From contig JAYTXK010000213.1 of the NCBI GenBank assembly GCA_043743005.1, positions 1 through 24,135 of the forward strand: a DNA stretch of 24,135 nt. Direction: 5' to 3'. The notes beneath the pieces were generated by a model, which worked only from the letters and a program-made list of their open reading frames with translations, had not been told where the DNA came from and ran no database searches. Below are positions 3,939 to 19,140 of this stretch, one piece after another. This DNA comes from Ignavibacteriota bacterium (GTDB lineage: Bacteria > Bacteroidota > Ignavibacteria > Kapaibacteriales > UBA2268). The position numbers were made by a program, and so were the translations under genes. How positions within the stretch are numbered: the first letter of the stretch is position 1; each line of letters begins with the position of its first letter.

Positions 3939-5231
3939 ATGAAAACACATCACAAAATAATAAATGGCGATAGCAGAAATATGGATGAATTAAAAGATAA
4001 TTCAGTACATCTTGCTATTACTTCACCTCCATATTGGCAATTAAAAGATTATGGGACAGAAAATCAAATTGGCTACCACGATAGCTATGAAAACTACATA
4101 AATAACTTAAATTTAGTATGGAAAGAATGTTACAGAGTATTGCATAATGGCTGTAGATTATGTATAAATATAGGTGATCAGTTTGCAAGAGCCGTTTACT
4201 ATGGAAGATATAAGGTAATACCTATTCGAGAGGAAATAATTAAATTCTGTGAAAACATAGGATTTGATTATATGGGTGCCATCATTTGGCAAAAAGTAAC
4301 TACATCTAATACTACAGGTGGTGGAATTCAGATGGGTTCATATCCATACCCACGGAATGGGATTTTAAAACTTGACTATGAATTTATTCTAACTTTTAAA
4401 AAATTAGGTGATCCTCCTAAGCATACTAAAGAACAAAAAGAATTATCAAAAATGACTGCCGAAGAATGGAACACATATTTCGCAGGTCATTGGAATTTTT
4501 CTGGTGCAAGACAAAATGGACATATTGCTATGTTTCCTGAAGAACTTCCAAAAAGATTAATTAAAATGTTTTCTTTTGTAGAAGAAACAATTTTAGATCC
4601 GTTTGCAGGTAGTGGTACAACAGCTTTAGCTTCAAAAAAATTAGATAGAAACTCTGTAGGTTTTGAAATTAATCATGATTATTTACCTTTTATTAAAGAT
4701 AAATTGAACATAAGTCAAAATGATTTAGAAGGTACAAGTTATGAGTTTATAAAGCAAAATGAAAAAGGAATTGATTTTAATAATGAAATTCAAAAATTAC
4801 CTTATGTCTTTAAAGATCCTCATGTATTAGATAAAAAAATTGATATTAAAAAATTACAATTTGGTTCAAAATTAGATAAAGATAGTTCGGCAAGAGAAGA
4901 ATTTTTTACAGTAAAAGACGTAATAAGTCCTGAAAAGGTAAGATTAAGTAATGATTTAATTGTAAAGCTCATTGGGGTAAAGGAAGACCCAATAATTAAT
5001 GGTAAAGCAACAGATTTCCTAATTGATAAGACAAAAGGTAAAAGAGTTTATTTAAAATATGACAAAGTGAAATATGATTCTGAAAACAATTTAATGTGTT
5101 ACTTATATTTGGAAAATAAGACTTTTTTAAATGCTCACTTAATTAAAAATGGATTAGTACAAGTTGACAGTATCTTTGATTTTAAATATAAAGAAAAGTT
5201 TAATTTAATATTAGAGAATATAAATGTCTGA
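3939..5231 (+). CDS. Beta-class amino DNA methyltransferase (probably N4-cytosine) with a C-terminal degenerate SNase-like domain
   Basis: Motif IV TSPPYW precedes motif I LDPFAGSGTT (beta order); HIAMFPEELPKRLI. The last ~110 aa follow the thermonuclease pattern (VKLIGV...KRVYLKYD...LMCYLYL...LNAHLIKNGLV). Confidence 0.92.
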   Translation: MKTHHKIINGDSRNMDELKDNSVHLAITSPPYWQLKDYGTENQIGYHDSYENYINNLNLVWKECYRVLHNGCRLCINIGDQFARAVYYGRYKVIPIREEIIKFCENIGFDYMGAIIWQKVTTSNTTGGGIQMGSYPYPRNGILKLDYEFILTFKKLGDPPKHTKEQKELSKMTAEEWNTYFAGHWNFSGARQNGHIAMFPEELPKRLIKMFSFVEETILDPFAGSGTTALASKKLDRNSVGFEINHDYLPFIKDKLNISQNDLEGTSYEFIKQNEKGIDFNNEIQKLPYVFKDPHVLDKKIDIKKLQFGSKLDKDSSAREEFFTVKDVISPEKVRLSNDLIVKLIGVKEDPIINGKATDFLIDKTKGKRVYLKYDKVKYDSENNLMCYLYLENKTFLNAHLIKNGLVQVDSIFDFKYKEKFNLILENINV

Positions 5232-5937
5232 AATAAAGTACAATAACAATTGGATAAAAGAAGAAAATAAATTTAAAAAAGCAATAATTGGAATTAAGAT
5301 ACCAGAATTTAACTTAAGTAATGTTGATTTTGTAGAAATTAAAAATCGACAGGATTTAAATAATATTGTACCTGTATTAGGACATGCCGGTGGATGTTAC
5401 TGGATTTGGACAAATGAACCTATCAATCATTACTTTCACAAAAACAAAATACCTATGGGATTTAACGGAGGTGAAGTTATTTATAATGGAATTGCAAAAG
5501 ATGATATAAGAGGTAGAATTTCAAATCATTTGTTTTCTACTGAACATGAAGGTAGGTCTGGAATAAGTATTGACATTTACAAGCATTTATCAAGTTCACA
5601 TCATAAGAAAGCCTGTTCACTTTCTGGAAAAGTACCTTTTATATTAGATCCAATTATATTAGGTCCAAAATTAAGTACTTTGAAACAAATAAAAATTAAA
5701 ACTGATTTGTTAACTTTAACTTTAGATAGTAGTGAAATAACTTATATAACTTCTTCTCCTTTAAGTACTTTTTATTTTAGAAATGGAATTAATGTAACTG
5801 AATCAAAACACAAAAATTATGAATATAGAATATATTATATAATTGGGTTATCTACATTATATATTGAACATATTGAAAAAGAATGGAGAAAAGCAAATGG
5901 TTTGCCAAGACTATGCTCTTATAGCTCTGGAAGATAA
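5224..5937 (+). CDS. Putative GIY-YIG superfamily nuclease (divergent)
   Basis: GCY(57-59), YNG(87-89), RISNH(98-102), EHIE(215-218), PRLC(228-231). Overlaps the MTase by 8 nt and abuts the next ATG. Assignment is from the motif pattern only. Confidence 0.6.
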   Translation: MSEIKYNNNWIKEENKFKKAIIGIKIPEFNLSNVDFVEIKNRQDLNNIVPVLGHAGGCYWIWTNEPINHYFHKNKIPMGFNGGEVIYNGIAKDDIRGRISNHLFSTEHEGRSGISIDIYKHLSSSHHKKACSLSGKVPFILDPIILGPKLSTLKQIKIKTDLLTLTLDSSEITYITSSPLSTFYFRNGINVTESKHKNYEYRIYYIIGLSTLYIEHIEKEWRKANGLPRLCSYSSGR

Positions 5938-6624
5938 ATGAAAAAACACTCAAAAGAATTTGGAAAAAAAGAAAAAGTATTAAATTATGCTACTCAAACT
6001 TATCAATTATCAAGACCAAATAAAGTAGGTGCAGTTATGGCACTTATCAGAGAATGCCAACCTAAATCTTTTGATGATTGGGAAAAATGGTACTTTGAAA
6101 ATGCTGTAACAGATGGTAAAAGGCAACATAAGATTACTTTAGAAAGTTTAAAAGAACTTGGCGAAAGATTATATTCAAAAATAACAGAAATTGTAATTCC
6201 TGAATGGACAGAATCATTTAATCAACTTACTCCAGAAGATTGTGAAGAGTACATAATTAACCTGACTATTAATAGAACTTATGATGGTTATATCCGAGAA
6301 AAATCGGTAATAGAAGATAATCTTGTAAAAGAATTTAAGGAAGTTGAATTTATTCAAAGTGATTCTGAACTTGATCATGCTGGAGATATTGATTACCTTG
6401 GTTGGGTTGGTAAAAGGGCTTTTGGAATTCAGATAAAGCCAGTTACAGCCAAATCAAATTTTGGTAATTATTCTGTATCTGAAAGAATGAAATCAAGTTT
6501 TGAGGATTTTACTTCCAAATATTTTGGCAATGTATTTATTGTTTATAGTGTATCAGAAGTAATTCAAAATAAAGAAGTAATTGAAGAAATAAGATTAGAA
6601 ATAAAAAGACTTGAGGAATTGTAA
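5938..6624 (+). CDS. MjaI-family type II restriction endonuclease (PD-(D/E)xK)
   Basis: Recalled family-like segments QLSRPNKVGAVMALIRECQP and INRTYDGYIREK; catalytic-type DHAGDIDY...GIQIKP; in an operon with an SPPY MTase. The prototype MjaI recognises CTAG; the specificity here is untested. Confidence 0.78.
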   Translation: MKKHSKEFGKKEKVLNYATQTYQLSRPNKVGAVMALIRECQPKSFDDWEKWYFENAVTDGKRQHKITLESLKELGERLYSKITEIVIPEWTESFNQLTPEDCEEYIINLTINRTYDGYIREKSVIEDNLVKEFKEVEFIQSDSELDHAGDIDYLGWVGKRAFGIQIKPVTAKSNFGNYSVSERMKSSFEDFTSKYFGNVFIVYSVSEVIQNKEVIEEIRLEIKRLEEL

Positions 6625-12344: not shown

Positions 12345-12403
12345 ACATTTTATTTGTTATTGGAAAAAGTTTATTATTTATTATATGAATTAAACTAATT
12401 TAT

Positions 12404-13249
12404 TTAGCTTTTGAAATAAATAGTAATGTTTTTTTCTTTATTAAATCTTGAAATTAATTCTTGCTTAATATTGCTTTCAGTTTCTCTTCTTTTAAAGAAT
12501 TTACATATATAATGAATTATTATTTTGAATTTGTATTCATCAAGATTTAACATAACATTTGGGCTATGAGAGGGGAAAAGCAAATCTTGGTAATGAGCTT
12601 TAATATCACTTTTATCTTTTTCCGAAAATTGATATGAAAATTCTAAAGCAATGTCATCAGCAATTTGCTTAGCTTTTTCCAAATCACTTTCTTTTGTGAT
12701 AGATACTTCAATTTCATTCCAAATCAAACCTAAACCTTTTGAATAGTTTGCTACTTTTTGAGTAAGAGCAAGGCTATTAGGTATTTTGATTAATCTACCT
12801 GTTGGCGAATCATTACTCATCCAATTACCAATTTCGGCAACCGAAATATATAAAGGTCCAAATTCCATAACATCACCAATTACACTATCTCCAACTTCAA
12901 TTCTATCGCCTACTTCAAATAAACCTCTCCATACAATTACCATATAAGCAACAAAATTGAGTATTAGCTCTTTTGAAACTAAAATCAGTGTAGCAGAAAC
13001 TAATGTAATTAATTGGAAAAAGGACTTAATGTCATTGAACCAAATTGTAAGTAAAGCTACTAAGCCTATTATAGTAACTATGTAGTTTGCTGTTTGTCTC
13101 CAAAGATATTTAGATGTTAATTGTTGAACATTTTTATTTATTATTCTGCCAACAATGCCACGCAAAATTAAACTGACTGTTACAACAAGTGCAGTTGCAA
13201 AGATTTGGAAATTAGTATTATCTAAAAGTCGGTGAATATTTCTAAACAT
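12404..13249 (-). CDS. MscS-family small-conductance mechanosensitive channel
   Basis: Three N-terminal TM segments, then FEVGDRIEVG...GDVMEFG, TGRLIKIPNS, NYS. Confidence 0.88.
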   Translation of the reverse strand: MFRNIHRLLDNTNFQIFATALVVTVSLILRGIVGRIINKNVQQLTSKYLWRQTANYIVTIIGLVALLTIWFNDIKSFFQLITLVSATLILVSKELILNFVAYMVIVWRGLFEVGDRIEVGDSVIGDVMEFGPLYISVAEIGNWMSNDSPTGRLIKIPNSLALTQKVANYSKGLGLIWNEIEVSITKESDLEKAKQIADDIALEFSYQFSEKDKSDIKAHYQDLLFPSHSPNVMLNLDEYKFKIIIHYICKFFKRRETESNIKQELISRFNKEKNITIYFKS

Positions 13250-13277
13250 AATTCTTAATTATTGAAAAATTTGATAT

Positions 13278-13304
13278 AAAAAAACCGCATTTTCAGCGGC
13301 TTTT
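13278..13304 (-). terminator. Intrinsic terminator after the DUF2795 gene
   Basis: Minus strand AAAAGCCGC-TGAAAAT-GCGGTTTTTTT. Confidence 0.7.
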
Positions 13305-13308
13305 CAGA

Positions 13309-13548
13309 TTAATAATATTGTTCTTCTTCGTCGTCATTGTAGAAGTATTCTTCACTCGAAACATCTTCATATTCGGGCCATAAGTCTTCCATTCCCTCAA
13401 TTAATTCATCATTGTCATCTAATTCATCAAGATTATCCAACACTTGCTGGGGGCAACCAGCACGATTTGCATAATCAATTAATTCTTCTTTGGTTGAAGG
13501 CCAAGGGGCATCTTCTAGAGAAACAGCCAATTCAGGAGTCCAAAACAT
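13309..13548 (-). CDS. DUF2795 family small acidic protein
   Basis: MFWTPELAVSLEDAPWPSTKEELIDYA matches the conserved Bacteroidota MYWTLELASxLEDAPWPATKDELIDYA pattern (recalled). Confidence 0.85.
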   Translation of the reverse strand: MFWTPELAVSLEDAPWPSTKEELIDYANRAGCPQQVLDNLDELDDNDELIEGMEDLWPEYEDVSSEEYFYNDDEEEQYY

Positions 13549-13708
13549 TTTAAATCCTCACTTATAAATTTTATTTCAATTTTTATTATTTTAACAATAC
13601 CAGATAAAAGCTACTATTTATTGAAACTATTGAAAGATAATTCAATATTGCAACTCAATATTTGGCATAATCGAATAATGTAATATTCTATTTTAAAAAA
13701 TTTTAAAA

Positions 13709-13757
13709 TAAGCAAAATAATTTCATTATTGTCTTTGAAATAGTTAGTTTTGTAAAA
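13709..13757 (+). repeat. Left copy of a 49-bp direct repeat flanking the C5 R-M cassette
   Basis: TAAGCAAAATAATTTCATTATTGTCTTTGAAATAGTTAGTTTTGTAAAA; 48/49 identical to 16176-16224. Confidence 0.95.
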
Positions 13758-13812
13758 TAGAAATCAAAAAGAAAATATATTTTATGTATATTGCAATAAT
13801 AAAATTAAAGAA

Positions 13813-15045
13813 ATGAATATGAAATTAAAACAAACAATAAGTATTGATGAATTTGAAGGCAAGAACTTTCAGATTAGACTTGTTGAAGGTATAGAAGACA
13901 AAGCTGTTTTAACACATTATCTTCATAATTACCGAAATGGTGTTAAAAAACATTATGAAAAAGATGCAATTTCTACTCTTAATAATTTTATTGATTTTAA
14001 AAAAATAAATGAAGAAAAGAATTTAGTTCAAGAAGATACTTTAAGGCAACTATTATTTGAAGTTGAAAATGTTCCTTTTCCAACTCCTAAAAACTATACT
14101 TTTAAATTCATAGATTTATTTGCAGGCATTGGGGGGTTTAGGCTTGCTTTACAAAATGTTGGTGGAAAATGTGTTTTTACAAGTGAATGGAATGTAGATG
14201 CTCAGAAAACTTACAGAGAAAACTTTGGAGAAGTTCCATTTGGCGATATTACAAAAGAAAGAAATAAAGCATACATACCTGAAAAATTTGATATATTATG
14301 TGCAGGATTCCCTTGTCAAGCATTTTCTATTGCTGGACAGCAAAAAGGATTTGCTGATACAAGAGGAACTTTATTTTTTGATATTGAGCAAATTATTGCA
14401 ACTCACAAGCCAAAAGTAGTATTTTTAGAAAACGTAAAAAACTTAGTTTCTCACGATAACGGTAATACGTTTAAGATAATAATTGATACTCTTGAAAAAA
14501 AATTAGGTTACAAAACTTTTTCAAAAGTTTTAAATACAGCAAAACATTCAAATGTACCTCAAAACAGAGAAAGAATTTTTATAGTGGCATTTGATCCAAA
14601 AAAAGTTAAAAAATATAATAATTTTAAGTTTCCTTCAGATATTAAATTAACTAAAACAATTCATGATTTTATAGATAAAGGAAAGCAAGATGATATTTAT
14701 TATTATAAAAAAGAACACCAATATTATCCTGAACTATTAAAATCTTTGCTATCCAAAGATACTGTTTATCAGTGGCGTAGAGTGTATGCAAGAGAAAACA
14801 AAAGTAATCTTTGCCCAACTTTAACAGCAAATATGGGTTCTGGTGGACATAATGTACCTCTTATAAAAGATAATTTCGGAATTAGAAAATTAACTCCAAA
14901 AGAATGCTTTGCATTTCAAGGTTATCCTATTGATAAATACATTTTGCCGAAGCTTGCAAATAGCAAATTATATATGCAAGCAGGTAATTCTGTAACTACA
15001 ACTTTAATTGAAAGGATAGTAAATCAAATTATTAAAGTTCTATGA
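13813..15045 (+). CDS. C5-cytosine DNA methyltransferase with a ~95-aa N-terminal extension
   Basis: FIDLFAGIGG (I), GFPCQAFS (IV), LENVKNL (VI), QNRERIF (VIII), RKLTPKECFAFQGY (IX), QAGNSV (X). The TRD YQWRR...CPTLTANMGSGGHNVP resembles GCNGC-group enzymes as I recall them. Confidence 0.96.
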   Translation: MNMKLKQTISIDEFEGKNFQIRLVEGIEDKAVLTHYLHNYRNGVKKHYEKDAISTLNNFIDFKKINEEKNLVQEDTLRQLLFEVENVPFPTPKNYTFKFIDLFAGIGGFRLALQNVGGKCVFTSEWNVDAQKTYRENFGEVPFGDITKERNKAYIPEKFDILCAGFPCQAFSIAGQQKGFADTRGTLFFDIEQIIATHKPKVVFLENVKNLVSHDNGNTFKIIIDTLEKKLGYKTFSKVLNTAKHSNVPQNRERIFIVAFDPKKVKKYNNFKFPSDIKLTKTIHDFIDKGKQDDIYYYKKEHQYYPELLKSLLSKDTVYQWRRVYARENKSNLCPTLTANMGSGGHNVPLIKDNFGIRKLTPKECFAFQGYPIDKYILPKLANSKLYMQAGNSVTTTLIERIVNQIIKVL

Positions 15046-16178
15046 AATCATTTGCAGAAATAGATATTGAAAACAAAGGAAATTATTTAAAATTACTTTC
15101 AGCAGTCTCAAAACTCTCAGGTTTGTTCAGCGAAAGTGCAATTCCTTTTATAAATTATAGAGTTGCAGAAAATGTTTTTTGCCGAAGTTTTGATGCTGGA
15201 AATCTTTCAAGGTCAGACACTGCTTTTGATGCAAAGTATAATTCTATTGGTGTTGGTTTGAAAACTTTTACTTGTAATTCAAATAGTAGTACTGAAAAAA
15301 TAGCAGAATTCAACTCTTTATCGGGAACATTAAAAGATTTTAAAGAAAAAGAATTGGCAATAAAACTAGGCGAATATAGAAATGACAGAATAAAATTAGC
15401 AAACAGACTTTATGATATTGAAAGTTCTATTTATCATATTGTTGCTAGAAAACAATATGAACTTTTGCTATATGAAACAGATTATAACTTTATTGATATT
15501 GAGAATATAGATGCTGTAAAAGACAATAAGTCAAGTTTGCAATTTGAAGATGGAAACAACTTTTATTCTTTCAATTATTCAAAAAGCACTCTTTATAGAA
15601 AATTTATTATTCCTCAAAATGTACACAGACTTCCAATTGAAATAATAGAAGATCCATATTCTTTATTACTTAATCTCTTTTTAAACAAAGATATAAAACT
15701 AGCTAATGACAAATTAGTAAAAGGTCATAGTTATGTAATTTTACCACTTTATGGAATAGATAAAAAAGAAAAACATATATTTGAAAAATCTGGTTTAAAT
15801 CAATGGAATGCAAATGGAAGAAAAAGAGATAATGGTGAAATTTACATTCCAATACCTACTATATTACACAAAAAATATCCAAATTTCTTTCCAAATAGAG
15901 ATATAAATTTTAATTTGCAAATTCCTACAGGAGAACTATTTAGTGCAAAACTTTGTCAAGATAATTCTAAAGCTCTAATGACAAATCCAAATAAAGTACT
16001 TTCAGACTGGCTTTTAAGAAAGGTTTTACAACTTAAAGAAGGAGAATTAGCTACAATGGAAAAATTAGATAAATTAGGTTTTGATAGCGTTATAATTACC
16101 AAAACAGACACTCAAAATTTTAAAATTGATATTATGAAAACTAATACATATTCTGAATTTGTAAATGATTCTGATTAA
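15042..16178 (+). CDS. Type II restriction endonuclease, NgoFVII-family-like (N-terminal PD-(D/E)xK-type domain, C-terminal B3-like domain)
   Basis: ATGA overlap with the MTase; LSRSDTAFDAK...GVGLKTF; C-terminal GLNQWNANGRKRDNGEIYIPIP and KALMTNPNKVLSDWLL. Confidence 0.8.
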   Translation: MKSFAEIDIENKGNYLKLLSAVSKLSGLFSESAIPFINYRVAENVFCRSFDAGNLSRSDTAFDAKYNSIGVGLKTFTCNSNSSTEKIAEFNSLSGTLKDFKEKELAIKLGEYRNDRIKLANRLYDIESSIYHIVARKQYELLLYETDYNFIDIENIDAVKDNKSSLQFEDGNNFYSFNYSKSTLYRKFIIPQNVHRLPIEIIEDPYSLLLNLFLNKDIKLANDKLVKGHSYVILPLYGIDKKEKHIFEKSGLNQWNANGRKRDNGEIYIPIPTILHKKYPNFFPNRDINFNLQIPTGELFSAKLCQDNSKALMTNPNKVLSDWLLRKVLQLKEGELATMEKLDKLGFDSVIITKTDTQNFKIDIMKTNTYSEFVNDSD

Positions 16179-16224
16179 GCAAAATAATTTCATTATTGTA
16201 TTTGAAATAGTTAGTTTTGTAAAA
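16176..16224 (+). repeat. Right copy of the 49-bp direct repeat
   Basis: TAAGCAAAATAATTTCATTATTGTATTTGAAATAGTTAGTTTTGTAAAA; single C/A mismatch at repeat position 25. Confidence 0.95.
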
Positions 16225-16300
16225 GTAAAATCATATTAAAAGAATTTAGTTGAGGGTGATTTTAATAATTTTTTATAAATTTTTTAATTAGGAATACAAA

Positions 16301-17809
16301 ATGCAAATATATAAATATCTTCAGTTTCTTTTGATTTCAATATTAAGTTCTTCTAATTTAATTTGTGAATGGAATATACAAACTTTTAAGCCAATTAATG
16401 ATAGTTTGGTTTTAATGTCAATTGGTTCAATGAGATTAGATGAGTCTAAATCATTTTTAATGTGTGGACAAATACTGACAAATAAAAACCTTAAATATGA
16501 AGCAGAGCATCCATACATTTCAAAAATAAATGTAAATGACTTAACTAAGCAAACATATCTTAATACTGATTTTCAAAATAAACAAATTTTTAGAACATAT
16601 AAAACTAGCTTGTCTTACTTAAATAATGATGGGCTTGGGATATTTGATGTAAATACTTTAGAAAAAAAACTATTTAAAATTGGAGATAAATTTGATAATA
16701 AAATTGTATTTCCTAAAGATGGGTCTATTAATAGTACCTTGCAATATGATAGAGAATTTAGAAACTTACTGATTGATAATGATACAATTTTTATTACTTC
16801 CAAAGCACGTGAAATTGATCAGGCACAACTTTTAGGTAGTACTCCTTATATTCATATTGCTAATCTATGGAATGAAATATGGAAATTTAATCAAAATAAT
16901 TTTACTTTATTGTACAGGGATTCTGTTTCTTTGGGTTTGAGTTCTGCATACCCATTAGATTTTATTAAATACAAAAATGGTGAGTTTGTTTTATCTTCAA
17001 ATAAAACTTTTATTTCCAAAGGTTCTTCATTGTATAAAATAACTAATTCATTCAAATGGGAAAGCCTTCCAGAAGTTGATTCTGTAAAAGTAATGGCAGA
17101 AGCAAATTGTACTAGTATTCTTTCAATAGGTAATAAACTATATGCAAAATACCTCTCTTCAACCGATAGATTGGTAAATGATGTAGTAAAGAAATATGGT
17201 TTTGTGCCTGCTATGTTTGTAGTTTATGAAAATGAGACTCCAATTGATGCAATGCCACTTTCATTAGTTAGCTTTGATGGATCAATGAGTGAAAAATATT
17301 CAAATCCAAATTTTGACATAAACCCAATTATTAATTACAAAGGTTACATTTTCATAGTTGGCTCAAATAACATTTACATTTATAAAAACAACAAACTATC
17401 AATTGTTGATATTAATAATGGTAAAGGATTGATTGGAGTGGGTGCAAATCCTAAATTAGCTCTTCATGGACAAGTTTTAATAAATGAAAAGGGTGTATTT
17501 ATTATTAATAGGGATTCAACTTACAATTATCAAATTCTTTATAATAGAGATATTGAAGGAATTATAGCATCTACTGGAATTGACAATGAAATTGATACAA
17601 AAGAATATTTTAATATTATAAACAAAAATATTAACTTTATTCAACAAGCAGATTCTTATACTATTTATGACCTTAACTGCAAAATACTTGCTAATAAAGT
17701 CAATCCGAATTTAATTGAACCATTACCTGAAATGGGAAATGGTATTTACTTCATACTTGCTCAATATGGAAAAACATATTATTCAAGTAAAATTTTAATC
17801 ACAAAATAA
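16301..17809 (+). CDS. Secreted hypothetical beta-rich protein with a divergent T9SS-like C-terminal domain
   Basis: Hydrophobic N-terminus MQIYKYLQFLLISILSSSNLIC; C-terminus YTIYDLNCKIL...GNGIYFILAQYGKTYYSSKILITK. Confidence 0.7.
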   Translation: MQIYKYLQFLLISILSSSNLICEWNIQTFKPINDSLVLMSIGSMRLDESKSFLMCGQILTNKNLKYEAEHPYISKINVNDLTKQTYLNTDFQNKQIFRTYKTSLSYLNNDGLGIFDVNTLEKKLFKIGDKFDNKIVFPKDGSINSTLQYDREFRNLLIDNDTIFITSKAREIDQAQLLGSTPYIHIANLWNEIWKFNQNNFTLLYRDSVSLGLSSAYPLDFIKYKNGEFVLSSNKTFISKGSSLYKITNSFKWESLPEVDSVKVMAEANCTSILSIGNKLYAKYLSSTDRLVNDVVKKYGFVPAMFVVYENETPIDAMPLSLVSFDGSMSEKYSNPNFDINPIINYKGYIFIVGSNNIYIYKNNKLSIVDINNGKGLIGVGANPKLALHGQVLINEKGVFIINRDSTYNYQILYNRDIEGIIASTGIDNEIDTKEYFNIINKNINFIQQADSYTIYDLNCKILANKVNPNLIEPLPEMGNGIYFILAQYGKTYYSSKILITK

Positions 17810-17822
17810 AGGAAATTAAAAA

Positions 17823-18408
17823 ATGAAAAAGATTATTTTATTCTTACTAATTATACTCAGTTACATTTTCTGAGGATAAATCAAAAATTCCTACATTCAA
17901 ACCCACATTTATTTATGAAAGACCTGATGGTTCTGAATACGCTAAAATTGATGGAGTTGAAGGGTGGGTAATTTTAAAACCTTCCCAAAAACCAAATCCA
18001 TTTTTTAGTACAGTTGATATTCCTAATCAAAATAAAATTAAGAAAAATGAAAAAGGTGAAACTATTATAGATGTTTTCGAAACAACTCCACTTAATCCTA
18101 GTGTATCAACAAATAATAGTTCATTTATTGATAGAACTTTTCCATTGGACTTGAGAACTGTAAAAATTTTCCCCAATCCATCAACTGAAAATTCTTCAAT
18201 TAGTATAAATTTAACTAATGAAAAAAATGTAAAAGTAGAATTATTTACAACAACAGGTAAATTTGTAGCCTTAGTTCAAGAAGGTTTATTACCACTCGGA
18301 GAAAACACCATACTAATTCCATCAAATAAATATTATAACGGGAACTATTTAGTTTCAGTTTCGATTGATGGTGCAAAACGAATGGAAGCAATTAAAATAG
18401 TAAAATAA
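17823..18408 (+). pseudogene. Small secreted T9SS-CTD protein with a +1 frameshift in the signal peptide (about 194 aa if repaired)
   Basis: ATG 17823 reads MKKIILFLLIILSYIF* (TGA 17871). The +1 frame is open from 17851 (LYSVTFSEDKSKIPTFK...) through to the ORF-track fragment 18145..18408 (IFPNPS...YNGNYLVSV...IKIVK). Removing one base near 17853 gives MKKIILFLLIYSVTFS-EDK. Confidence 0.8.
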
Positions 18409-18634: not shown

Positions 18635-18658
18635 TAATTGAAAATAATGGAGAATTGT

Positions 18659-18859
18659 ATGTCATTTACAGAAATTATTGACTCAGTTGAAACTTTAAGT
18701 ATAGATGATCAGATTGAAATTGCTAGAATTATTACTAGTAGATTAATCGATATTAAAAGAAATGAAATCTATAATAATTGGCAATCTTCAATATCGGAAT
18801 ATCTAAGTAATAAAATTAAAGCTTTACCTTATGAAAGTGCAATTTTAGAATTGGAATAA
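18659..18859 (+). CDS. Putative type II antitoxin (66 aa)
   Basis: ATG 18659 after GGAG; small acidic helical protein (MSFTEIIDSVETLSIDDQIEIARII), 2 nt upstream of a RelE-family toxin. Confidence 0.65.
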   Translation: MSFTEIIDSVETLSIDDQIEIARIITSRLIDIKRNEIYNNWQSSISEYLSNKIKALPYESAILELE

Positions 18860-18861
18860 AA

Positions 18862-19140
18862 ATGAATATTGTCTTTTCATCAACTTTTAAAAGAGCATTT
18901 AAACATTTTACAAAAAATAATTCTGAATTAAGAATACAAATTTTAAAAGTTATTGAAAAACTATCTAAAGACCCATTTAATATTCAACTGAAAACTCATA
19001 AATTGAGTGGTAATCTTTATGGTCTTTATTCTTGTAAATGTGGATTTGATTGTAGAATTATATTTGAAATATCAAGAAATGAAAAAAACGAACAAGAACT
19101 TCTGATTGTAGATATTGGAACTCATGATACTGTTTATTAA
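18862..19140 (+). CDS. RelE/ParE superfamily toxin (YafQ-like mRNA interferase)
   Basis: SSTFKRAFK, LKTHKLSGNL, DCRIIF, C-terminal DIGTHDTVY. Confidence 0.88.
   Translation: MNIVFSSTFKRAFKHFTKNNSELRIQILKVIEKLSKDPFNIQLKTHKLSGNLYGLYSCKCGFDCRIIFEISRNEKNEQELLIVDIGTHDTVY

Follow-up and report, generated by a model that had tools for sequence, protein, structure and literature searches.

A restriction-modification cassette between 49-bp direct repeats in an Ignavibacteriota genome: probable recombinase-independent insertion with long target duplication

The window analysed here is a stretch of 24,135 nucleotides from an Ignavibacteriota bacterium (assembly GCA_043743005.1, contig JAYTXK010000213.1, positions 1 to 24,135 of the forward strand). 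It contains a 2.4-kb restriction-modification (R-M) cassette, which lies between a DUF2795 gene and a 502-aa gene starting at position 16301. The cassette comprises the genes for a C5 cytosine DNA methyltransferase (MTase) and a Type II restriction endonuclease (REase) and is bracketed by the two copies of a 49-bp direct repeat, DR-L and DR-R. It is very likely, judging from the sequence comparisons, that the cassette entered this intergenic region by a recombinase-independent insertion with long target duplication. Such an insertion had been proposed in an earlier reading of the DNA made from the sequence alone (the sequence-only reading), and it is well supported by indirect evidence: the homology to related cassettes ends at the repeats, five sister loci show comparable duplications, an empty site is available for one of them through the comparison of the genomes G030 and G040, and the cassettes have no conserved termini. 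The features of the locus are listed below.

13309–13548, minus strand: left-flank host gene DUF2795, 79 aa (PF11387, E 2e-12), transcribed away from the insertion
13709–13757, plus strand: DR-L, left copy of the 49-bp direct repeat, with weaker likeness on to 13766
13745–13752, plus strand: TAGTTTTG in DR-L, a match to TAnnTTTG about 60 nt before the MTase start
13758–13812, plus strand: 5′ non-coding part of the cassette; the homology of relatives starts at 13766–13780
13813–15045, plus strand: C5 cytosine DNA methyltransferase, 410 aa, intact (PF00145, E 4e-88)
15042–16178, plus strand: Type II restriction endonuclease of the NgoFVII family, 378 aa, intact (PADLOC REase_II)
16176–16224, plus strand: DR-R, right copy of the 49-bp direct repeat, with weaker likeness on to 16233
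16212–16219, plus strand: TAGTTTTG in DR-R, a match to TAnnTTTG about 80 nt before the gene at 16301
16301–17809, plus strand: right-flank host gene, 502 aa, with a weak sorting tail of the type IX secretion system (T9SS; TIGR04183, weak)

The repeat pair at the insertion site

The direct repeat described in the sequence-only reading was confirmed. A repeat search and a base count gave 48 identical positions out of 49, with the sole mismatch at 13733 (C versus A) and a start-to-start distance of 2467 bp. When the copies are extended to 13766 and 16233, 54 of 58 positions match. Comparison of the upstream with the downstream flank of the cassette (about 1 kb each) gave a BLAST hit with E = 1e-21. 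As a control, 400 random 2.4-kb pseudo-inserts in the source genome were treated by the same procedure with 1.5-kb flanks. None of them reached E ≤ 1e-15, and E ≤ 1e-8 was obtained from one locus only, which had been sampled three times.

The insert between the copies is 2418 bp long, and the genes of the C5 MTase and the REase are the only genes inside it. Both open reading frames (ORFs) are backed by domain matches, which bears out the claim that the repeats enclose nothing but the R-M pair. The right copy indeed begins at the REase stop codon: the TAA at 16176–16178 forms the first three bases of DR-R. The reported absence of a transposase or integrase also held, as no such domain was found among the Pfam-scanned ORFs of at least 70 aa across the 24-kb window. 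The repeat search detected no terminal inverted repeats at the cassette boundaries. The source assembly is a metagenome-assembled genome (MAG) of 2.6 Mb in 556 contigs with 28% GC, and the 49-mer occurs in it twice, the next-best match being 26 nt long; at 77% completeness of the assembly this copy number is provisional. The search for further copies, which the sequence-only reading had suggested, thus excluded a dispersed multi-copy motif in this assembly.

The source is a fragmented MAG, and a repeat of this size could in principle result from the mis-joining of metagenomic contigs that overlap by about one k-mer. In one of the sister cases described below (G150), a contig does end inside the repeat. 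However, one base distinguishes the two copies of the 49-mer, which are separated by 2.4 kb and enclose a complete operon. The left junction was also found in a second, independent assembly, on a 2.07-kb contig of a close (sister) strain (L022, GCA_043745925) that is 98.3% identical over 13010–15077. Furthermore, contigs of two other sequencing runs (SRR22198267 and SRR23617268) carry the identical REase and 134 nt of the DNA downstream of it. The recurrence of the left junction and of the REase contigs shows that the structure is not an assembly artefact. The same architecture is also present in G030 on a contig of 214 kb. The probability of an artefact is therefore close to negligible.

The ends of these Logan contigs were also noted. 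By inferred coordinates, one contig of SRR22198267 would end about 199 nt upstream of DUF2795, at approximately 13747 and thus inside DR-L, and one contig of each run 134 nt past the REase, at approximately 16312. The break inside DR-L could reflect a mixed population of occupied and empty sites.

The cassette family and its sister insertions

The MTase matches TIGR00675 (E 4e-93) and the PADLOC model MTase_II (E 2e-133) in addition to PF00145, and the motifs FxGxG, PCQ, ENV, QNRER and GNSV are all readable in its translation. The REase gene is co-oriented with the MTase gene, with an overlap of 4 nt between its start and the MTase stop. The REase aligns with the PADLOC REase_II model PDLC03479 over residues 1–376 of 376 (E 2e-196). 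Its C-terminal part contains a B3-like DNA-binding domain (PF20731, E 4e-12, residues 240–355), while residues 1–240 have no Pfam match and the whole protein has no PDB match by sequence. The context of its invariant His132 is not a plain HxK. The plasmid relatives of the REase, with 40–44% identity, are annotated as NgoFVII family or PLD domain REases. By its C-terminal domain and the annotation of its relatives, the REase is assigned to the NgoFVII cluster. It resembles the NgoFVII/AspCNI cluster of PLD-type Type II enzymes (GCSGC) in the PF20731 B3-like domain and in having a C5 methylase as a partner; it differs in its N-terminal half, which matches neither a Pfam domain nor a solved structure.

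The REase is common throughout Bacteroidota. A scan of species genomes yielded 255 relatives of the REase, of which the best 80, with 57–84% amino acid identity, were kept. These 80 include proteins from Flavobacterium, Chryseobacterium, Pedobacter, Polaribacter, Arcicella, Tenacibaculum and Sphingobacterium, and nearly always the same methylase is encoded immediately upstream of the REase. Within the same order, close REase relatives were found in 5 of 253 other genomes, and the R gene is broken or truncated in three of them. In G118 (L032, G118:C63, 1500–2048) an internal deletion has removed residues about 112–296 of the REase. In G008 (L009, G008:C15, about 1357–1452) a remnant of 32 residues is left beside an intact methylase. 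In G004 (L027, G004:C42) the REase is in two pieces, and the short contig ends before the methylase. As far as these sequences indicate, the restriction gene is the part that breaks; wherever the contig extends to the M gene, that gene is retained. A search of plasmids and phages returned only distant relatives with 30–44% identity, from Firmicutes plasmids and from Pasteurella and Oenococcus phages, and thus no Bacteroidota vector was identified.

The DNA homology of the window cassette to this family, in alignments with more than 80 relatives, extends from 13766–13780 to 16160–16187 and no further, which means that it stops within about 10–20 nt of each window repeat. The horizontally shared unit is thus exactly the inter-repeat segment. 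Base composition gives no signal in the window, where the insert has 26.6% GC and the flanks have 27.0%, the cassette family being AT-rich everywhere (27–31%). In other hosts with a higher GC content, the inserts are 4–8 GC points below their own flanks, which marks them as foreign there.

Five further cassettes of the family are flanked by direct repeats that are unique in their genomes. Together with the window there are six such insertions, with duplications of 24, 24, 47, 49, 82 and about 200 bp; the loci are non-homologous and no flanks are shared. The most informative of them is the cassette of G030 (Candidatus Kapaibacterium sp., of the same GTDB order), which has 75% DNA identity to the window cassette. 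In G030 (L019, G030:C1, 4626–7158) it lies between the copies of a 47-nt direct repeat that match at 46 of 47 positions, occur twice in the genome and are unrelated in sequence to the repeat of the window. The left copy consists of the last 45 nt and the stop of a 682-aa host gene. In G040 (L046, G040:C15), a congener of G030, the 3′ end of the 682-aa gene is present once and is followed directly by a terminator hairpin, and in G030 this hairpin comes after the right copy of the repeat. By this sequence comparison, G030 and G040 provide a complete demonstration of an insertion with a 47-bp target duplication for the sister cassette. A 458-aa ORF beside the G030 cassette (L019, 7302–8678) is also absent from G040 and represents a second, separate indel.

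In G150 (L031, G150:C29, 7021–9473; L044/L048, G150:C65) the repeat is about 200 bp long and corresponds to the 3′ end of a rhodanese-like gene. The copies agree at all of the first 169 nt, and the right one is spread over two contigs with an 84-nt overlap. The right copy starts 14 nt before the REase stop, so that the last four REase codons come from target DNA. The two copies differ by one unit of the 11-nt tandem repeat GGAGGCAAAAG. In L083, a Polaribacter MAG, an 82-bp repeat with 90% identity, present in two copies only, contains the 3′ end of the gene to the right of that cassette. Perfect 24-mers, each in two copies, flank the cassettes of L053 and L061. Since the repeats in G030, G150 and L083 include the 3′ end of a host gene, they are target DNA and not cassette DNA. 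No empty sites were found for G150 and L083, where relatives match one flank only.

The repeats might alternatively be att- or attC-like sites used by an integrase acting in trans, in the manner of integron cassettes or small integrative elements. Direct repeats of 40–60 bp are typical of att sites, and with a genome that is 77% complete an integrase may be encoded elsewhere. However, no integrase is present in the window, and the repeat sequence differs from locus to locus without a common core, being a host-gene 3′ end in G030, G150 and L083. Repeat lengths range between 24 and about 200 bp. The 49-mer contains no attC-like hairpin, as its folding energy is no better than that of shuffled sequences (z about 0), and it is not a tRNA sequence. 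The ends of the cassettes are not conserved either: the non-coding DNA kept 5′ and 3′ of the genes amounts to 55 and 0 nt in the window, 161 and 44 nt in G030, 14 and −14 nt in G150, and 229 and 205 nt in L083. On this comparison, the cassettes are without common termini. The lack of shared termini and of inverted repeats and the unfolded 49-mer argue against an enzyme that recognises the ends of the element or a fixed att site. Site-specific recombination is accordingly regarded as extremely unlikely.

Weighing the insertion: controls, empty site and age

Several observations weigh against a recombinase-independent insertion with target duplication as the explanation of the window locus, and they concern both the family and the locus itself. 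At the level of the family, about 57 of 68 cassettes have no detectable flanking repeat. Dispersed multi-copy elements of the host make up the flanking repeats in L057, in L073, in L109 and partly in L051, and therefore a flanking repeat alone is no proof of mechanism. At the window locus, no empty site was found among 129 family genomes, in the congener G002 or in the close strain, because the gene on the right flank is specific to the species. In the one conspecific sequence that was found, the MTase likewise lies next to DUF2795. A metagenome scan with a 21-nt motif of the left flank returned three unrelated contigs only.

Flanking repeats are nevertheless enriched at the cassettes. At E ≤ 1e-8, 11 of 68 cassettes had such repeats, compared with 3 of 400 control positions (Fisher p 7e-8), and when unique repeats only are counted, 6 of 68 cassettes had them (p 5e-4); both p-values are rough, as the control comes from a single genome and the family members are related. 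The cassettes without repeats may be older insertions, or they may have come in by a different path, for example homologous replacement.

The dispersed elements are intergenic and about 130–190 nt long. They were found at L057 1064–1202 (Amniculibacterium aquaticum, at least 8 genome copies), L073 630–820 and L109 3091–3248 (several copies in each of these two genomes). By their sequence, the cases of L057, L073, L109 and partly L051 belong to the class ‘insertion between repeated sequences’, which is treated as a separate class by Furuta et al. (2010; PMC2853133). Since such cases exist in the family, the window cassette might have landed between pre-existing local or dispersed repeat copies or have come by recombination between them. 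Against this, the genome contains the 49-mer only twice. The copies, which lie in AT-rich intergenic DNA free of constraint, share 98% identity, and on both sides the cassette homology stops within about 10–20 nt of them. The one empty site available for the family, in G040, has a single copy, and G002 has at most one weak copy. Pre-existing repeats are thus a very unlikely explanation.

The comparison with G002, the only syntenic congener, is limited to the left side. G002 is homologous over 12402–13698 with 78% identity, and the homology ends about 10 nt before DR-L. To the right of the synteny break it has an 885-aa gene, which is unrelated to the 502-aa gene of the window. About 55 nt past the break, a single weak look-alike of the repeat matches at 32 of 43 positions; 0.5% of mononucleotide shuffles score as well. 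It is only suggestive as the single pre-insertion copy. The 21-nt left-flank motif is also found where an rpsT-like gene begins elsewhere. Exact-protein look-ups with the flank and cassette proteins gave one usable contig, which carries DR-L, the MTase and DUF2795 of the sister strain.

This contig also bears on the age of the insertion, which the sequence-only reading had called recent. It differs from the window at 1.7% of positions and yet has DR-L next to the MTase, and the insertion must therefore predate the split of the two strains. The nearest relatives of the cassette are about 81% identical in DNA, which implies that there is no recent donor in the databases. The term ‘recent’ is thus only partly true and was overstated.

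The repeat carries a possible promoter element. The consensus of the −7 promoter box of Bacteroidota is TAnnTTTG. A pattern scan of the plus strand of 13500–16400 found three matches, two of which, both TAGTTTTG, are within the repeat copies. In each copy of the 49-mer a TTTC is located about 20 nt upstream of TAGTTTTG. The cassette's own upstream block reads TTTTTTG in relatives and TTTTATG here. The duplicated host promoter may, on these motif matches, now drive the R-M operon. A sigma-70 promoter scan was set aside as uninformative for Bacteroidota.

These motifs also allow for a different order of events, in which the cassette inserted without duplication and selection for expression later favoured the copying of the 49-bp promoter segment of the 502-aa gene to a place upstream of the methylase, or copying in the opposite direction. 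The box stands in each copy at a promoter-like distance from the next gene, and the cassette's own upstream block is mutated in the window; both points favour this scenario. However, two rare events would be needed, and their ends would have to coincide exactly with both cassette boundaries. Moreover, relatives show the same architecture where the repeat is the 3′ end of a gene and not a promoter. The chance that the repeat is a secondary duplication is accordingly judged to be very small.

Proposed mechanism and relation to known systems

For the recombinase-independent insertion with long target duplication, we propose that an illegitimate insertion would have duplicated about 49 bp (up to 58 bp) of the target and left one copy on each side. 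Probably a linear fragment was end-joined, either to a staggered break formed by two offset single-strand breaks, with subsequent fill-in, or to the offset nascent ends at a stalled replication fork. Either way of joining would account for duplication lengths between 24 and about 200 bp and for the ragged ends of the cassettes, which do not fit a transposase with a fixed stagger. After such an insertion, one copy of the repeat may drive the cassette while the other keeps driving the host gene. RecA-type recombination between the 49-bp copies could excise a 2467-bp circle, which would restore the empty site, or could amplify the unit. A length of 49 bp is near the lower limit for efficient homologous recombination. 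The loss of the cassette would be counteracted by a restriction enzyme that outlasts the methylase, and post-segregational killing of this kind is established for several Type II systems.

A further conceivable route is the insertion of the cassette by its own product, in which the PLD-type REase would act as a strand-transfer enzyme joining its cassette to nicked host DNA. BfiI, the best-studied member of the PLD-type cluster, acts through a covalent enzyme-DNA intermediate and is able to carry out the transesterification of DNA (PMC4081073). If true, this route would explain the repeated recombinase-free insertions of one family. The sequences lend it no direct support: no GC-rich NgoFVII-like site was seen at the junctions, and long target duplications have been reported for R-M systems of all types. 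We consider it to be exceedingly improbable.

R-M insertion with long target duplication has been described before (Nobusato et al. 2000, Gene 259:99; Furuta, Abe, Kobayashi 2010, NAR 38:2428, PMC2853133), and the sequence-only reading had pointed to this precedent. The hosts in Furuta et al. are epsilon-, beta- and gamma-proteobacteria, cyanobacteria, actinobacteria and Thermus, and their text does not mention Bacteroidetes (PMC2853133). Duplications of 45–47 bp are reported there for Haemophilus, Thermus and Xylella, and those of H. pylori reach about 420 bp; the authors suggest the involvement of double-strand breakage common to all R-M types (PMC2853133). They delimited such insertions by five properties: R and M genes inside, an insert below 20 kb without mobility genes, a repeat longer than 30 bp, a repeat that is not dispersed, and an empty site. 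Four of these five are found at the window locus, and the fifth, the empty site, is found only for the sister cassette, in G030 versus G040. A literature search, which was not exhaustive, found no paper linking long target duplication of R-M systems to Bacteroidota.

The window locus is similar to the insertions of Furuta et al. (2010) in that a short insert with R and M genes and without a mobility gene is flanked by a unique host repeat of variable length, often a gene 3′ end. It differs in the host phylum, which is Bacteroidota here, and in that one cassette family has evidently taken this route at six unrelated loci. Transposons and insertion sequences likewise consist of inserted DNA flanked by a target duplication; unlike them, the cassette has neither terminal inverted repeats nor a transposase, its duplication varies from 24 to 200 bp instead of having a fixed length of 2–14 bp, and its ends are unconserved. 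Integron cassettes with attC sites are unlike the window locus, where the repeat forms no hairpin, and the repeats of the different loci are unrelated. Amplification has been reported for R-M units that lie between long direct repeats (ref. 84 in PMC2853133). The order repeat, R-M genes, repeat in the window is the architecture reported to amplify by unequal recombination, but the repeat here is only 49 bp long.

Surroundings of the locus and significance

The DUF2795 gene to the left of the cassette is conserved across the family with 72–80% DNA identity, and the left flank also contains an MscS-type channel gene and two CMD-family genes. To the right, the 502-aa gene has no homologue in 129 other family genomes and one partial paralogue in its own genome, and it is considered species-specific on this basis. 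The right flank also contains the genes for an asparaginase and a 1215-aa T9SS protein. An 87-aa ORF at 18145–18408, located 335 nt past the 502-aa gene, consists of a T9SS C-terminal sorting domain (PF18962) alone and is probably the left-over tail of a disrupted gene for a secreted protein. The T9SS domains assign the organism to Bacteroidota. At 18638–19140, a small antitoxin-like ORF is followed by a YafQ/ParE/YoeB-like toxin gene, and these two are likely to form a type II toxin-antitoxin pair. The R-M cassette, the species-specific T9SS gene and the toxin-antitoxin pair mark the region 13.7–19.2 kb as a stretch of accessory genes.

A second R-M operon is located at 3939–6624 in the window. 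It encodes an N6/N4 methylase whose tail is SNase-like, an MjaI-family REase and, between them, the product of an unnamed gene. No flanking direct repeat was found for this operon, which may have arrived by another route or have repeats that have decayed. Upstream of DUF2795, at 13657–13680, lies a 22-nt block that is conserved with the congener G002. On the minus strand it reads ATGCCAAATA, like the start of an rpsT-like gene on the unrelated metagenome contig L130, and in the window it opens an ORF of 8 codons only. This block could be a leader, a remnant or a coincidence.

The window locus is a new example of a known but mechanistically unexplained mobility of R-M systems, which are selfish defence genes, in a phylum without mention in Furuta et al. 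(2010). The recombinase-free movement of bare R-M pairs has been an open question since long target duplications were first described in 2000. The window locus alone adds little to it. The cassette family is more useful, with six independent insertions and one proven empty site, and forms a comparative set for the mapping of junctions and for the testing of microhomology or replication-fork models. It also makes it possible to pick a Flavobacterium host amenable to experiments, so that insertion, excision and amplification could be measured there. The promoter-bearing duplication suggests a way in which an incoming cassette may be expressed without silencing the downstream host gene.

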